64,000 nt of DNA, taken from positions 384,001 to 448,000 of the forward strand of contig CBDAOI010000004.1 of NCBI GenBank assembly GCA_965198005.1. Reading direction: 5' to 3'. This DNA is from Spirochaetia bacterium (GTDB lineage Bacteria > Spirochaetota > Spirochaetia > SZUA-6 > Bin103). The position numbers and the translations under genes were made by a program. The notes beneath the pieces are model-generated. The model had not been told where the DNA came from. It saw only the letters and a list, made by a program, of their open reading frames with translations, and ran no database searches. This document shows, piece by piece, positions 24,849-36,800 of this stretch. The number at the start of each line of letters is the position of its first letter. The first letter of the stretch is position 1.

Positions 24849-25001
24849 GCTCGGGGCCCGTGCACTGACCGTGTCGGGGATACGCAAGCCCGAGCCCGGA
24901 CGGACGGCCGCTCGGGGAACACCACCACCAGCGAGCTGCGCTTGACCAGCTGCAGGGCGCGCCGCGCACCTTGCCTCGCCTCGGGTTCGGCGGTCAGGGT
25001 C

Positions 25002-25647
25002 GGTCACCTCCGAGTGGTTGACCGGGTGGTCGCGTCCATAGCAAGCTTGCCTGGCCTGGGTTCGACGGATCGATGATGAAGCGCCATGATGACAGTCAGC
25101 GCAGTGGCCGGTGGCCGGTGACGTTCGGAGACCTCCGAGTCGTTGACAGGGTGGTCGCGTCCATAGCACGTTTGCCTCGCCTGGGGTTCGACCGATCGAT
25201 GATGACGCGCCATGACGACAGTCAGCGCAGTGACCGGTTGGCGCTCACGTTTGGTGAGCTCCGAGTGGTTGACCGGGTGGTCGCGTCCAGAGCAAGCTTG
25301 CCTCGCTTGGGGTCGGACGGATCGGAGATGAAGCGCCATGACGACAGTCAGCGCAGTGGCCGGTGGCCGGTCATGTTCGGTGACCTCCGAGTGGTTGAAA
25401 GGGTGGTCGCGCCCACGCTATCATGCCTGGCCTGGGGCGACGGATGCCGATGAAGCGCCATGATGACAGTCAGCGCAGTGACGGGTTGCCGGTGACCTTC
25501 GCTCACCCCGGTGACCCCCACGAGTCGTTGACGGCGCGCCGCGCCTATGCTAGCGTGCCTCACCTGGGGTTCGACGGATGGTCATGAAGCGTCACGATGA
25601 CAGGCAGCGCAGTGACCGGTTCGCTGTGACGCGACCGGTGCATCATA
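25002..25647 (+). repeat. Degenerate ~125-bp tandem repeat array B (5 units)
   Basis: Five successive aligned units with no unique spacers. Confidence 0.92.
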
Positions 25648-25953
25648 CCCCCCCACTTTTTCAAACCGAGAAACAACTAACCGCTCGGGCTGATCGCCCC
25701 GTACGCGACCCCGCGCACACCGTCGCCTTCACCACCGCCGTAGCTATCGGTGGCGCCCGCTCGGTCCATCGCCGAACCGGCATGCTGGCCGCCCGCGTCC
25801 TTCCAGGCGACCGCAACCGTCCCGGATCCCCGCCCGCGACTAACTGCGCGCAATACCCACCGCCGGCGTTGGCGGCCATTCAGACTCACTGCTGCTCAGA
25901 CCACCGCCACGCGTGGCGTTGTAACGCAGATCCCGACGTAAATCTAGAGAAGA

Positions 25954-27884
25954 GTTGGAGTAGGAATGACCATCGCTGATCACCCCCTCCACAGATCCCG
26001 GCGAGCGGAACTACCGCACCGGGCTCCTGCCTCAGGTATGACGCCAAGGCGGTGCAGGGGATAGGGATGGCACACTCGGGGCGGCGGCAACCAGTGGTCG
26101 AGCAGGCGGCTCATGCGCTCCCAGGTAAGCCGGGTCTTCTGACTGCGCCGCCGCATCGACCGATTCCAGAGCCAACCAACCCGCAGGCGGAACAGGCTGA
26201 TTGCGCGGGAGTTCATGGGCACCCCGTAGTAACGCAGGTGCCCACCCACAACCGAGCGCAGCCAGCTTCCCACCTCCGGGACCGGATCGTGCAGGCGTCG
26301 CCGAAGCTCGGTCTTCACCTGCCCCAGCTTGGCCTGCAACCGCTTCCGCATCGTCTGCCTGAGCACCGTAAACCGTCCGTTGCTCCCCTTGGTCCCGCAA
26401 ATGTGCGTGAACCCGAGGAAGTCGAAGGTCTCCGGCTTCCCCTGACCTCGACGCCTGCGGTTCTCGGCCGCGAACGGCCCAAACTCGATCAAGCGCGTCT
26501 TGTCAGGGTGCAGCTCCAAGGCGAACTTGCTGAACCTCTCGGTCAGCGCCGCCCGGAACCGCTCGGCATCCGAGCGGTGTCGGAATCCGACGACGATGTC
26601 ATCCGCGTAGCGCACGACGATCACCTCGCCACGCGCCTGCGTCTGCCGCCAGCGCCGGACCCACAGGTCGAACACGTAGTGCAGGTAGATGTTGGCAAGA
26701 AGCGGCGAAGCGCTGCCTCCCTGCGGCGTCCCCTGTTCGCTGCGTGTCCGCGTTCCACCGTGGTCGATGGCATCGAAGAACCCACGGATGTCCACGTCGA
26801 GCACCCAGTTCACCTTCCGTGTCAGCAGGCCCACATAGAGCGCGTCCAACGCATTGTGCTGGCTGCGCCCCGGCCGGAACCCGTAACTGAACCCGAGAAA
26901 GTCGGTCTCGTAGATGGTGTTCAGCACCTCGACTGTCGCACGCTGGACGATCTTGTCTTCCAGCGCCGTCACGCCGAGCGGTCGTTGCCGCCCGTCGCTC
27001 TTGGGGATGAACACCCTCCGCACCGGCTTCGCCCGGTACGCTCCTCGCTGCAGCCGTCCACAGAGGTCCAGGAGGTTGTCCTCCAGGTCCCCTCCGTACT
27101 GCCGCCACGTCACCCGGTCCACCCCCGGCGCGGCTTCCCGCTTGAGGCTGAAGTACGCCTCCCGGAGGATCGCGGGGTTGTCGACGTGGTGCATGAGCGC
27201 GGTGAACCGCAGCGTCCTATCCCGTCGCGCTGCTTGACGTATCCGCTCCAGCGCACTGTGCACGCCATATTGCCGGCGCGGTGTCCGGGGCGCGTTTTGC
27301 TGGCGCGGATTCCCTTTGGCCAGGCCCCTTCCCTCCACCCGCTCCGCGGCCCGGGCGCTGCCGGCCGGCGTGGCCGTAGGTGCTCCCTTGGCTGTATCCG
27401 GCGTTTCCGCCTGCGTGCCCGTGTAGGGTTCACCATAGCCGCGCCGCCTGCGGCAGCCCCCGTCCTTGTTCGCGGGTTTCCCAGGTACTATGGGCCTGTC
27501 CGACTTCCCAGCTCCGTTCATCGTCGGCGTACGTCCTTGGACTTCCCGACACGGCCTGCGGCGCCATCCGCCACAGGCGAAGCTGGGATCTCCCGGCTCC
27601 CGCGCAAGGTGTTTCCGTACGTGCCCGGGGTCTATGACCGCGCAGGGTCCCGTGGCGCCTCGCGATATCGGCGCCCCGGGTGTGGCCTTCCGCATCCTCC
27701 TACGGCGTCGGCACCCCAAAGTAATTCCTTTCGCGGCTCGATACCCGGCCCGCACGTACCCCTGTCAACGCTTCACCCCCGCCCTCGCGGGCGACGGCGC
27801 ATGACTCGGGGCCGCCGTGGGTCGCTAGCCCTTCGACGTATGACTCTTCCATTCACAACACCCTGCCGGTTTTTGCCGGCGCAC
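25954..27884 (-). mobile_element. Group II intron (probably bacterial class E)
   Basis: 5' GTGCG; domain V GAGCCCGGTGCGGTAGTTCCGCTCGCCGGGATC; domain VI ending ...CCTACTCCAAC; RT ORF; no target duplication. Confidence 0.95.
25980..27263 (-). CDS. ltrA: Intron-encoded reverse transcriptase/maturase with an in-frame internal deletion; no endonuclease domain; start uncertain
   Basis: 'APGVD', 'IPKSDGRQRPLG', 'SYGFRPGRS', 'GTPQGG', 'YADD', 'FDFLGF'; 'DIRGFFDAIDH' lies only ~9 aa before 'GTPQG'. Confidence 0.85.
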   Translation of the reverse strand: MHSALERIRQAARRDRTLRFTALMHHVDNPAILREAYFSLKREAAPGVDRVTWRQYGGDLEDNLLDLCGRLQRGAYRAKPVRRVFIPKSDGRQRPLGVTALEDKIVQRATVEVLNTIYETDFLGFSYGFRPGRSQHNALDALYVGLLTRKVNWVLDVDIRGFFDAIDHGGTRTRSEQGTPQGGSASPLLANIYLHYVFDLWVRRWRQTQARGEVIVVRYADDIVVGFRHRSDAERFRAALTERFSKFALELHPDKTRLIEFGPFAAENRRRRGQGKPETFDFLGFTHICGTKGSNGRFTVLRQTMRKRLQAKLGQVKTELRRRLHDPVPEVGSWLRSVVGGHLRYYGVPMNSRAISLFRLRVGWLWNRSMRRRSQKTRLTWERMSRLLDHWLPPPRVCHPYPLHRLGVIPEAGARCGSSARRDLWRG

Positions 27885-28070
27885 AGGAGGTTCGAATGAT
27901 ACTGAAAGAACCGCACGCGCGCGCGGCGTGAGCCCGGCTAAACCCGGTGAGTCACACGCCGCGCGCTTCACAAATTGACTCAGACTGGCGGCAAGCGTTG
28001 CGCGCCTGAGAGTAGCCAGGGAGCGGCAATCCGCTCCGCAATACTCTCGAAATACCGTTCAAGGATAACG

Positions 28071-29909
28071 ATGATGAAAATCTTTTTTGCAAGGACCTTC
28101 GCGATTGCGTTGGTCCTAGTTTTGACCGCAACCGGCCTCTGGGCCGCTGGCGCAGAAGAGGAGCCGGCAGCCGCTGCCGACAAGAGGTATGTGACCGACC
28201 CCGTCACCGGCAAGGCGGTGTCCGCGCCCCAGTACGGCGGGAAATTAACCTATGCCAATGTTGGGCACTTCAACGCCGCTGCTGGTTTTGACGCCTGGTT
28301 TAGGGCGAATGCACTTGCCGCCACCAGTGGCGTTGTAGAGAAACTGGGCATCGGGGACTGGGCAATAGATAGGGACACGTATCCCTTCATTGGCGGCACC
28401 TTACTGCCTCTAAACGCCATAAGGGGAGCGCTGGCGGAAAGCTGGGAGCAGCCCGACGACACAACCTATATCTTCCACATCCGCAAGGGCGTTAACTGGC
28501 ATGATAAGGCACCGATGAACGGGCGGGAGCTAACTGCCTATGATGTAGAACATACCTTTCACCGTTTATTGGGGAATAAGTTGACAGGGACCGAGTTCAG
28601 TGCAGCCGAACCTACTGAAAGGGCCGGTGACTTCGCAACTTTGCCTTGGGAATCGGTAACGGCCACCGACAAATATACGGTTGTCTTTAAGCTGAAGGAG
28701 CCATGGCGTAACGTCCTGGAGAGGATCTTGGACTGGTGGAACGGTGTTATACAGCCCCCCGAGGTAATCGAGCAATACGGGGACATGAAGGATTGGAGGA
28801 ATGTGGTCGGCACCGGGCCCTATATGATAACTGACTTCGTCGCCGACAGCTCTATAACCTATACCAAGAATCCTAACTACTGGGGCTTCGACGAAAAATA
28901 CCCGGAGAACCGTTTACCCTATATTGACGAGGTAGAGGCCCTTACTATCACGGAACCGGCAACAAGGCTGGCGGGACTGCGCACGGCTAAGCTCGATTTC
29001 GTAGGTTTCGCGGGCAACACTCAAATAATGGAGGTAGACCAGCTAGAGAGCCTCTTGCGGACCAACCCGGACCTCGTGGTGCATCCGTATTTATCCCGGT
29101 CCAATAATTGTGGTTTGATTAACGTGAGCAAGCCGCCCCTTGACGACGTCCGGGTGCGCCACGCACTGCAGATGGCAATTGACATGGAGGCAATCAACCG
29201 TGCCTTATATAACGGTGATGGGGATGCGATACCTCAGGGGTTTATAGGCAGGGTTTTCAAGGAGTATGTCGTCCCATTTGAAGAGTGGTCCGAAGAGCTC
29301 AAGGGATACTATACTTATGACGTGGCAGGGGCCGAGAAGCTGCTTGACGAGGCGGGATATCCTCGCGGTGCCGACGGCATTAGATTCAAGATCACGCGCA
29401 CCGTCCGGGATCTGTATGATTTGAGCTTTATAGAATTACAGGCAGAATACTGGCGTGAGATTGGCGTTGATGTGGATATTTTAGTACAGATAAGTGCGGA
29501 ATGGTTCGCTGGACAGCTATCTGGAGATTATGAGATAACTTCAGAATCGTGCGCTTCCGCGTCGTCTACCTTTGGTAACCCAGCCCTGCTGTTGTCATGG
29601 TATAGGAGCGACTGGGGCACCGCTTCGAATAGGAACTTCTCCGTCCGCGACGCGCAATATGACGCCTGGTGGGAAGCCCTGCTAGCTGCTACCACCGTTG
29701 AGGAGGAGATTAGGCTGGCGAAAGATTTGGGCATGCGCGCGATAGAGCAGCACTGGACGATCTGGGGGCTTATCTCCCCGCAGTATCAGGTGCACCAGCC
29801 GTGGGTGATAGGTTATAACGGCGAAGCCGGCATGGGAGGAAGCAATTACCTTACTATTTTCCCACGGCTCTGGATTGATAGTGAGCTGAAGGAGGCAATG
29901 GGTTATTAG
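28071..29909 (+). CDS. ABC substrate-binding protein, family 5 (close paralog of 5415-7238)
   Basis: Long identical stretches shared with SBP1. Confidence 0.93.
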   Translation: MMKIFFARTFAIALVLVLTATGLWAAGAEEEPAAAADKRYVTDPVTGKAVSAPQYGGKLTYANVGHFNAAAGFDAWFRANALAATSGVVEKLGIGDWAIDRDTYPFIGGTLLPLNAIRGALAESWEQPDDTTYIFHIRKGVNWHDKAPMNGRELTAYDVEHTFHRLLGNKLTGTEFSAAEPTERAGDFATLPWESVTATDKYTVVFKLKEPWRNVLERILDWWNGVIQPPEVIEQYGDMKDWRNVVGTGPYMITDFVADSSITYTKNPNYWGFDEKYPENRLPYIDEVEALTITEPATRLAGLRTAKLDFVGFAGNTQIMEVDQLESLLRTNPDLVVHPYLSRSNNCGLINVSKPPLDDVRVRHALQMAIDMEAINRALYNGDGDAIPQGFIGRVFKEYVVPFEEWSEELKGYYTYDVAGAEKLLDEAGYPRGADGIRFKITRTVRDLYDLSFIELQAEYWREIGVDVDILVQISAEWFAGQLSGDYEITSESCASASSTFGNPALLLSWYRSDWGTASNRNFSVRDAQYDAWWEALLAATTVEEEIRLAKDLGMRAIEQHWTIWGLISPQYQVHQPWVIGYNGEAGMGGSNYLTIFPRLWIDSELKEAMGY

Positions 29910-34983: not shown

Positions 34984-35456
34984 GCGGGAGTTCATGGGCA
35001 CCCCGTAGTAGCGCAGGTGCCCACCCACAACCGAGCGCAGCCAGCTTCCCATCTCCGGGACCGGATCGTGCAGGCGCCGCCGAAGCTCGGTCTTCACCTG
35101 CCCCAGCTTGGCCTGCAACCGCTTCCGCATCGTCTGCCTGAGCACCGTACACCGTCCGTCGCTCCTCTTCGTCGCGCAGATGTGCGTGAACCCCAGGAAG
35201 TCGAAGGTCTCCGGCTTGCCCTGACCTCGACGCCTGCGGTTCTCAGCCGCGAACGGCCCGAACTCGATCAGGCGCGTTTTGTCAGGATGCAGCTCCAAGG
35301 CGAACTTGCTGAACCTCTCGGTCAGCTCCGCCCGACACCGCTCGGCATCCGAGCGGTGTCGGAATCCGACGACGATGTCATCCGCGTAGCGCACGACGAT
35401 CACCTCGCCACGCGCCTGCGTCTGCCGCCAGCGCCGGACCCACAGGTCGAACACGT
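34984..35456 (-). pseudogene. Internal fragment of a second, diverged group II intron RT
   Basis: Aligns to 26205-26677 including YADD, with several substitutions. Confidence 0.9.
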
Positions 35457-36306: not shown

Positions 36307-36800
36307 TCACATTACGAACCGAGAAACAACTCACCGCTCCGGCTGATCGCGTACGCGTACGCGACCCCGCGCACACCGTCGCCTTCACCACCGCCGTAGC
36401 TATCGGTGGCGCCCGCTCGGTCCATCGCCGAACCGGCATGCTGGCCGCCCGCGTCCTTCCAGGCGACCGCAACCGTCCCGGATCCCCGCCCGCGACTAAC
36501 TGCGCGCAAAACCCACCGCCTGCGTTGGCGGCCATTCAGACTCACTGCTGCTCAGACCACCGCCACGCGTGGCGTCGTAACGCAGATCCCGACGTAAATC
36601 TAGAGAAGAAGGAGGTTCGAATGATACTCAAAGAACCGCACGCGCGCGCGGCGTGAGCCGGGGTGAACCCGTTGAGTCACACGCCGCGCGCTTTTAGTGA
36701 ATTTGACTCAGACTGGTCGCCCGCGTTGCGGGCCCGAGAGTAGCCAGGGAGCGGCAATCCGCTACGCAATACTCTCGAAATAACATTCAAGGAAGAAACG
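36307..36800 (+). promoter_or_regulatory. SBP leader copy 4 (intact intron target site)
   Basis: Aligns to 4901-5414; preceded by a C19 tract. Confidence 0.75.

Follow-up and report, generated by a model that had tools for sequence, protein, structure and literature searches.

A group II intron inserted antisense at a Shine-Dalgarno sequence in a Spirochaetia bacterium, and a lineage of relatives at ribosome-binding sites

Spliceosomal introns descend from group II introns, which also underlie targetron tools; where these elements insert governs both how they spread and what they cost the host. We analyzed a 64,000-nt stretch of DNA from a Spirochaetia bacterium (assembly GCA_965198005.1, 90% complete; contig CBDAOI010000004.1, forward strand; G000:C4:384001-448000 in our numbering), hereafter called the window, in which such an intron occupies the minus strand at 25954-27884 (1931 nt) and lies antisense at the Shine-Dalgarno (SD) sequence of a small open reading frame (ORF). 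What would bring an intron to the non-coding strand of a ribosome-binding site (RBS)? A first reading, made from the letters of the DNA alone (the sequence-only reading), had proposed that its exon-binding site 1 (EBS1) is itself the SD consensus and directs it there. The explanation that we consider best overall, at a probability of about 0.8, is that the window intron belongs to a lineage that targets SD sequences in antisense orientation, and that it is probably a non-autonomous member.

Insertion site, EBS1 and intron class

The boundaries of the intron follow from a comparison of occupied and empty sites. On the plus strand the occupied site reads ctagagaaga/GTTGGAGTAGG...CCGGCGCAC/aggaggttcgaatg (slashes mark the junctions), and the empty site, in a paralogous leader of the same window, reads ctagagaaga/aggaggttcgaatg. 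In a longer view, positions 25946-27898 read CTAGAGAAGA/GTTGGAGTAGG...GCCGGCGCAC/AGGAGGTTCGAATG and positions 36600-36623 read CTAGAGAAGA/AGGAGGTTCGAATG. In other words, the intron is interposed between AGAGAAGA and AGGAGG; the flanks of the two sites are identical base for base, there is no target-site duplication, and the unoccupied homing site (36602..36615, plus strand) consists of AGAGAAGA at 36602-36609 and AGGAGG at 36610-36615. The sequence-only reading had described this precise insertion and located the empty site correctly, and its intron span of 25954-27890 was right at the start; the end belongs at 27884, with 27885-27890 being the AGGAGG of the exon. On the intron strand the DNA begins with GTGCG and ends with CTACTCCAAC (...CUACUCCAAC at the 3' end of the RNA), which gives the GUGYG/AY termini of a mobile group II intron (GUGCG...AC). 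The 5' exon ends ...CATTCGAACCTCCT, and its last six bases, CCUCCU (27885..27890, minus strand), constitute intron-binding site 1 (IBS1) and are the complement of the SD sequence AGGAGG of a leader mini-ORF, MILKEPHARAA* (27896..27931, plus strand; asterisk, stop), whose RBS is the target. The first base of the 3' exon, a T on the intron strand (25953, minus), is probably IBS3; a T at +1 is common in the relatives described below. Downstream, the gene of an SBP_bac_5 solute-binding protein (28071..29909, plus strand; Pfam PF00496, 231.8 bits) has an intact ORF.

The partner of this exon hexamer lies in domain I. RF02005 (group-II-D1D4-6) was the only Rfam family to reach its gathering score in the window, matching the domain I core at 27628..27847 (minus strand) over the full length of the model (positions 1-225; 184.3 bits, cut-off 49; E 6e-54). 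In the structure line of this covariance model, an Id3-type hairpin, GCCGACGCCGUAGGAGGAUGCGGAAGGC (27685..27712, minus), carries a 9-nt loop, GUAGGAGGAU, which holds 5'-AGGAGG-3' at 27696..27701 (minus), where the sequence-only reading had located it, with 6/6 pairing to the exon CCUCCU. We then aligned the window copy with 49 related introns (n = 50), each represented by its last 12 exon bases and ~205 bases of intron. The six loop columns form standard pairs with exon positions -6 to -1 in 98.3% of 300 cells, with double-sided changes in all six EBS1-IBS1 pairs; none of 500 shuffles matched the observed covariation, and sliding the partner by 1-3 columns lowered the pairing to 35-55%. The pairs of the hairpin stem are kept in 100% of the 50 sequences, with double changes in one of them. 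The AGGAGG loop is EBS1, and the check that the sequence-only reading had suggested for its placement of the hexamer, folding domain I, came out in its favor by model and covariation alike. It is hardly credible that the match is a coincidence and that EBS1 is located elsewhere: all that such a view has in its favor is the prior likelihood that six nucleotides match by chance, and it is contradicted by the covariation, in which the loops AAGGAG, AGGAGA, AGGAGC, CAGGAG, CGGAGU, AUGCAU, UAGGGU and UGAGGC each have their own complement in their own exon. In a second intron family of the same genome, read by eye, a loop GUACUC stands opposite exons ending GGGUAC or GGGUAU.

A weaker match, GAAT/ATTC, which had been put forward as EBS2/IBS2, was given up: it comprises 4 bp only, and the exon bases concerned vary among the occupied leaders, which read TTCGAA, CTTCA, TTTGCA, TTCGGG or TTTGAA at -7 to -12. 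A wider comparison of the internal loop before the EBS1 hairpin with exon positions -7 to -30, in the 49 relatives and the window copy, gave short matches in differing registers and no acceptable EBS2/IBS2.

As for the class of the intron, the Rfam match begins at intron nt 38 and domain I is compact. Domains V and VI (25954..26028, minus strand) align column for column with those of 46 relatives and score 37.1 bits with RF00029, against a cut-off of 40. Read by eye, the domain V loop has 5 nt (GCGG-UAGUU-CCGC), and the hairpin after EBS1 has a loop, GAUAUCGCGAG, that is complementary at 6/7 positions to the Ib loop CUAGCGA and is by eye an alpha' candidate; Nagy et al. 2013 (PMC3753933) include a 5-nt domain V loop, and an alpha' in the terminal loop of a DId3 stem-loop, among the features of class E/F. 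In the AGC triad of domain V, again by eye, the base opposite G is A (GAGCC...GGAUC) rather than the usual U, in the window copy and in loci L031-L101. The intron-encoded protein (IEP), a reverse transcriptase (RT)/maturase of 513 aa in domain IV (25980..27521, minus strand), matches only RVT_1 in Pfam (111.6 bits), and no DNA-binding/endonuclease (D/En) domain was detected in it by Pfam. These features fit an endonuclease-less, IIB-like intron with RNA features of class E/F type. The RNA features fit class E or F, and the class E named in the sequence-only reading is not established.

Relatives in other phyla

In a scan of species-representative genomes with the IEP we found 543 relatives, the best 80 of which (60-79% identity) were kept. 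The 5' junction and the EBS1 hairpin were recognized in 54 of these 80, and at least 40 nt of exon was available in 49. Among the 49 loci, EBS1 and IBS1 pair at all six positions in 46 and at five of six in 3; an SD core adjoins the junction on the opposite strand in 45, and in 40 a start codon lies 9-17 nt off (mode 12-14) and begins an ORF that has 60 aa or more or continues to the contig end. The controls gave 1128 of 8000 (14%) for random junctions and 129 of 856 (15%) for the same hexamers elsewhere in the flanks; relative to the expectation from the hexamer, insertions at real RBSs are about fivefold in excess. The 10 ORFs tested next to junctions all encode ordinary proteins; their Pfam families differ, and the matches begin close to the N-terminus. 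A search for further copies in five genomes added 15 new sites. After merging duplicates and orthologous sites, the pooled set comprised 59 distinct sites, 56 of them with an SD-type EBS1; in 53 of these 56 a start codon lies 9-17 nt away on the opposite strand, and in 45 it begins an ORF that reaches 60 aa or is still open where the contig ends. The sequence-only reading had expected other insertions of this intron to adjoin SD sequences and start codons, and across the lineage they do; in the intron's own genome and genus, the targeting of the non-coding strand of SD sequences was seen at one repeated leader only (see below). The lineage is present in Acidobacteriota, Planctomycetota, Gemmatimonadota, Alphaproteobacteria and other groups. 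In a tree of the IEPs (71 rows; quick search, midpoint root, no bootstraps, one label, L091, mis-extracted), a group of 55 rows (approximate likelihood ratio test, SH-aLRT, 91) contains 46 with an SD-type EBS1, 5 with others and 4 unread.

Two side observations concern individual loci. The 3' exon of L073 equals the 5' end of another intron copy minus its first G; the junction CTCCT/G of a resident copy seems to have been the target of this intron (EBS1 CAGGAG), and the result is a tandem pair. One ~130-aa gene has its RBS occupied at L074, L079, L145, L149 and L162, loci that come from three or more genomes (the L074 ORF matched Pfam Glyoxalase); this could be either an inherited insertion or a preferred home site.

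Apart from the hexamer, the sole conserved position is +1 of the 3' exon, which is T in 35 of the 44 related introns with a readable 3' junction. Considering that EBS1 carries the SD sequence, the intron would pair with the SD complement. The alignments demonstrate, on sequence grounds, an RNA-DNA code (EBS1, probably together with EBS3 and the +1 T) that reads the SD complement, and its antisense product spares the SD sequence, the start codon and the ORF. Under the mechanism that we propose, EBS1 AGGAGG would pair with CCUCCU/CCTCCT on the non-coding strand of a gene, and reverse splicing would set the intron antisense and, in the sense of the gene, immediately upstream of the SD sequence; the intron could not be spliced from the host mRNA. 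Recognition would consist of the 6-nt EBS1 and the T at +1, the latter probably read via EBS3, at AT-rich translation-initiation regions. Replication-fork primers are expected to serve endonuclease-less introns (PMC4424553), and retrohoming would probably proceed by replication-fork priming. The identity of EBS1 with the SD sequence also raises the possibility that it may pair with the 3' end of 16S rRNA.

The same target data can be read differently: the intron ribonucleoprotein (RNP) might insert at any 7-nt match, with only the RBS-proximal, intergenic insertions surviving. We regard this as unlikely as the source of the RBS association, even though the conserved target information is confined to -6..-1 and +1, and antisense insertions inside ORFs would destroy genes. 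One genome (G031) contains six copies with 100% identity over 300 nt, each at a different RBS, and the existence of identical copies of such young age speaks against slow purifying selection being the sole cause. Sense-oriented insertions inside ORFs should be made tolerable by splicing, yet none was recognized (this absence rests on the 53 of 56 sites with an opposite-strand start codon and does not extend to the remaining 3). In addition, the insertion sites are far more AT-rich than control hexamer sites, with a GC content of 41% at -20..-7 and 47% at +1..+15 against 57-58% in the controls (57.5% at -20..-7; P = 2e-13 and 3e-7), which is compatible with a physical preference. The AT-richness itself fits either easier melting for an RNP without D/En or the mere composition of RBS regions.

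A stronger form of antisense SD targeting is one that we hold tentatively, at close to an even chance: antisense insertion at RBSs would be an actively targeted, lineage-wide specificity in which the RNP also senses the initiation region, with the genus of the window intron having narrowed to one leader and RT-deleted copies being kept in trans. What would then be sensed besides the SD complement may be the AT-rich, easily melted spacer or the complement of the start codon.

One leader in the genus, and a deleted protein

A BLAST search of the intron against its own genome returned 10 copies or fragments that retain the 5' end, and all 10 adjoin an identical ...GAGTATCAT(N5-6)ACCTCCT, the antisense of a repeated leader; the copy census that had been suggested on the basis of the window alone leads to one SD junction throughout. 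The leader (~170 nt, fold z = -3.56) consists of the SD sequence, the mini-ORF, a 12-bp GC hairpin followed by UUUU, and two further hairpins. With a fuzzy mini-ORF pattern we counted 78 leaders in the genome, nearly all upstream of ~600-aa SBP_bac_5 paralogues. The intron 5' end lies at the exact leader position in 18 of the 78, leaving 60 empty, and a loose search for the 5' terminus gave 91 matches, only 18 of which continue as intron, all in leaders. The occupied leaders all have AGGAGG (18/18); the empty ones have AGGAGG (42), AGGGGG (8), TGGAGG (5) or other hexamers (5). Leader copies with AGGAGC (window ~5200) and AGGGGG (window ~12150), to which the sequence-only reading had drawn attention, are indeed present, and the hexamer distribution fits an EBS1 requirement; it does not demonstrate an "escape" from the intron. 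An ORF of at least 547 aa still follows 16 of the 18 occupied leaders. The window copy is the only one in its genome with both ends, the others retaining the 5' end and being truncated or internally deleted; several leaders keep merely 20-180 nt of the intron 5' end, and about a quarter of all leaders hold an intron or a 5'-end relic.

Since the leaders form a large paralogous family, the copies might have arisen by duplication or gene conversion of leader-plus-intron units instead of by retrohoming. One occupied pair is a 4.9-kb duplication at 99.5% identity, and three copies have the same 90-nt deletion. Nevertheless we consider this origin very unlikely, given that introns and flanks should then have diverged equally, and they have not. 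In the 10 pairwise comparisons of five copies, the first 430 intron nt are 95-98.6% identical; identity is 69-88% in the 190 nt of leader beside them and 68-79% in the 800 nt of SBP gene that follow (68-88% for the flanks together). The precise junction also occurs in leaders whose upstream contexts differ. It follows that the gene family is much older than the insertions, and those in this genome are independent of one another.

Of 10 other genomes of the genus, 7 have the leader; it was found in none of the 20 genomes searched from other genera of the family and order. A junction query (50 nt of exon and 400 nt of intron) found spanning copies at 90-98% identity in G001, G003, G005 and G006, many of them with deletions. 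The G003 copy (2018 nt) has both ends, an intact IEP and a T at 3' exon +1; the 5' exon ends in ...ATCATTTCGCACCTCCT, while the 3' exon, TCTTGGGGCACAGGG, represents another upstream context than the TCTTCTCTAGA of the window. Within the genus, which is sponge-associated, no site of the lineage other than the RBS of the leader mini-ORF was found. Deletion derivatives in the same four genomes (L111-L130) reuse breakpoints at intron nt ~1127/1128 and ~1562, the former being the site of the 90-nt deletion in the window copy.

This restriction is what a leader-specific form of homing would lead one to expect, in which the intron of this genus reads a long site through unrecognized RNA-DNA pairings or protein contacts and the SD match is one part of it, as at the long homing sites of classical introns such as RmInt1 and Ll.LtrB; the partner of these pairings or contacts would be the conserved ...UUCUUUSAGUAUCAU... 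segment or the GC hairpin of the leader. All 18 of the 5' termini are in leaders, despite the leaders making up only 56 of the 364 AGGAGG-N4-9-ATG sites and 29 of the 88 AAGGAGG-N4-9-ATG sites of the genome, so the hexamer alone does not explain the restriction. The same junction also recurs in four further species of the genus, and the distal 5' exon is conserved among occupied sites. We think this possible, but on balance doubtful: there is no convincing EBS2/IBS2, exon positions -7 to -12 are variable among the occupied leaders, close relatives sit at many unrelated genes that have only the hexamer and the +1 T in common, and the 78 redundant paralogues may simply be where insertions are tolerated.

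The protein of the window copy is not intact. Its TIGR04416 score is 284.7 against a cut-off of 300, and its relatives include solved group II reverse transcriptases, to which the alignment steps from residue 259 to 263 in the query and from 156 to 190 in the target. At this gap the G003 IEP has 30 extra residues, WLVKFAEHRIGDRRVVRLIQKWLNAGVLED, and the difference at the DNA level is a clean, in-frame 90-nt (30-aa) deletion between RT motifs 3 and 4, with its junction at 26755..26762 (minus strand). The window copy combines an apparently complete ribozyme with a deleted RT, and is in our view probably non-autonomous. The deletion is common to all 3 copies in the genome that span the region, and hence the deleted form has spread, either in trans or by way of a protein that still works; we infer that mobilization in trans is the favored route. 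The missing 90 nt occur in no copy of this intron family (family 1) in the 90%-complete assembly, where only the 69%-identical second family has the segment. Most likely, the window copy is a complete ribozyme that would depend on an intact protein like that of the sister species; such mobilization in trans, and tolerance of the insertion by the host gene, would both be part of the proposed mechanism.

Several points weigh against antisense SD targeting as set out above. With regard to the window copy, the RF00029 score of domains V and VI is below its cut-off, and with its IEP deleted and no intact family-1 copy in the assembly, the copy may be dead. As regards its genome, no insertion was found at the 59 non-leader AAGGAGG-N4-9-ATG sites; generic RBS targeting is consequently shown for relatives only, and something beyond EBS1 restricts this sublineage. 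Intron sequence is present in 4 sequencing runs (3 metatranscriptomes and 1 of unrecorded kind), and all four have the joint 25953>27885, with 18-34 nt on the shorter side, but it is indistinguishable from empty paralogous leaders and hence silent on splicing and expression. Among the relatives, 26 of the 80 loci were dropped with an unrecognized junction, among them contig ends and a 14-row group (L071, L095-L109) that is sister to the 55-row group in the IEP tree and has an EBS1, GACAC(A/G), that is not SD-like; a few nested members likewise have a non-SD EBS1 (ATGCAT, TAGGGT). Finally, the RBS association cannot be separated from post-insertion selection, nor from a preference for AT-rich DNA. 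The sister group, whose 5' end appears to be G(A/T)AGCG and whose exons end in (A)CGTGTC, suggests a retargeted branch.

Some further features of the locus and the genome are recorded here. Leaders in the window lie at 27885-28070, 36610-36800, ~5200, ~12150 and ~44640 (minus strand); the leader occurs in at least four different upstream contexts, has no Rfam match and looks like a uORF (upstream ORF)/terminator attenuator. A scan found no sigma-70-like promoter sites, and terminator-like matches were within chance. By local GC skew, which is noisy, 15 occupied leaders are co-directional with replication and 3 head-on, against 38 and 22 of the empty ones, a difference that is not significant. 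A lone fragment of the same intron (positions 1208-1680, 96% identical) lies at window 34984-35456 (minus), with no SD sequence adjoining it and with the empty leader at 36610 following ~1.1 kb downstream, and a tandem array (126-nt unit, 4.1 copies, 83% matches) lies at window 24991-25501, upstream of the occupied leader. The second group II intron family is ~69% identical to the first, accounts for ~22 RF02005 hits at ~169 bits (e.g., G000:C4:168056-170500), starts with GAGCG rather than GUGCG and is located in two other repeated contexts, at least one of which adjoins an intron relic at a leader. At five leaders of this genome (ATG at G000:C1:4939, C4:1735494, C4:1379976, C2:457712 and C3:502598), a different element occupies the intron site; only its first ~35 nt (GTGCGCCGGGAATACCGG...) are shared with the intron, and the unrelated part that follows is common to the five loci over 176-950 nt. 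C1:4939 and C4:1735494 form a 4.9-kb duplication at 99.5% identity.

Known systems and meaning

Three target specificities of group II introns are named in a 2015 review (PMC4424553): homing sites, terminator motifs and attC. Close in strategy are the class C (IIC) introns of terminators and attC sites, which, like the lineage described here, are endonuclease-less and recognize a generic, abundant intergenic signal through a short RNA-DNA pairing. In contrast to these, EBS1 here has 6 nt rather than 3-4, the RNA is IIB-like (RF02005) and not IIC, and the signal is the SD complement at a start codon, antisense to the neighboring gene, rather than a DNA hairpin. Membership of the terminator-targeting class C was rejected on the 6-nt EBS1, on RF02005 as the best family, and on the nearest hairpin of the 5' exon, also its only one, which ends ~29 nt from the insertion site.

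A monophyletic IIB1 lineage is, like the present one, specialized for translation signals of protein-coding genes. These start/stop-codon introns are described as sense-oriented and spliced from the mRNA, with a domain I whose base carries a 300-700-nt insertion, and with En-containing IIB1-type proteins (PMC12584367). The intron studied here differs in being antisense, upstream of the SD sequence and compact in domain I, and these features, together with its distance of 12-14 nt from the start codon, led us to reject membership of that lineage as well. RmInt1 (class D) and other endonuclease-less homing introns share with it an RT/maturase without D/En, an expected reliance on replication-fork primers for mobility, and many copies in a repeated element; RmInt1, however, reads a long site in an insertion sequence element via EBS1, EBS2 and EBS3, whereas here EBS1 and +1 alone are conserved. 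The introns of Thermosynechococcus elongatus (Mohr et al. 2010, PMC2882425) are similar in their many copies and ORF-defective derivatives, the latter presumably served by protein made elsewhere; they differ in intron class and in targets, and the available portion of that article mentions no link to RBSs.

In a full-text literature search, the coverage of which is incomplete, we found no report of antisense SD or RBS targeting, and priority is accordingly uncertain. None appears in the available portions of PMC3753933, PMC3552965, PMC7306698, PMC8919778, PMC4028801 and PMC3073962, though the insertion-site and neighborhood tables of PMC7306698 and PMC3552965 may list such sites.

If true, antisense SD targeting would be a fourth mode of site choice, besides long homing sites, terminators and attC. 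It raises the questions of whether an endonuclease-less RNP senses anything beyond 7 paired bases, how a gene is expressed with a 2-kb antisense intron in its 5' untranslated region, and whether RT-deleted copies can be mobilized in trans. The intron would insert beside genes without breaking the ORF, the SD sequence or the start codon, and the price would be that it is never spliced from the host mRNA. Almost any bacterium would offer thousands of conserved targets whose use spares ORFs; the SD complement would be a target before most genes in most bacteria, which would explain the spread of the lineage across phyla.

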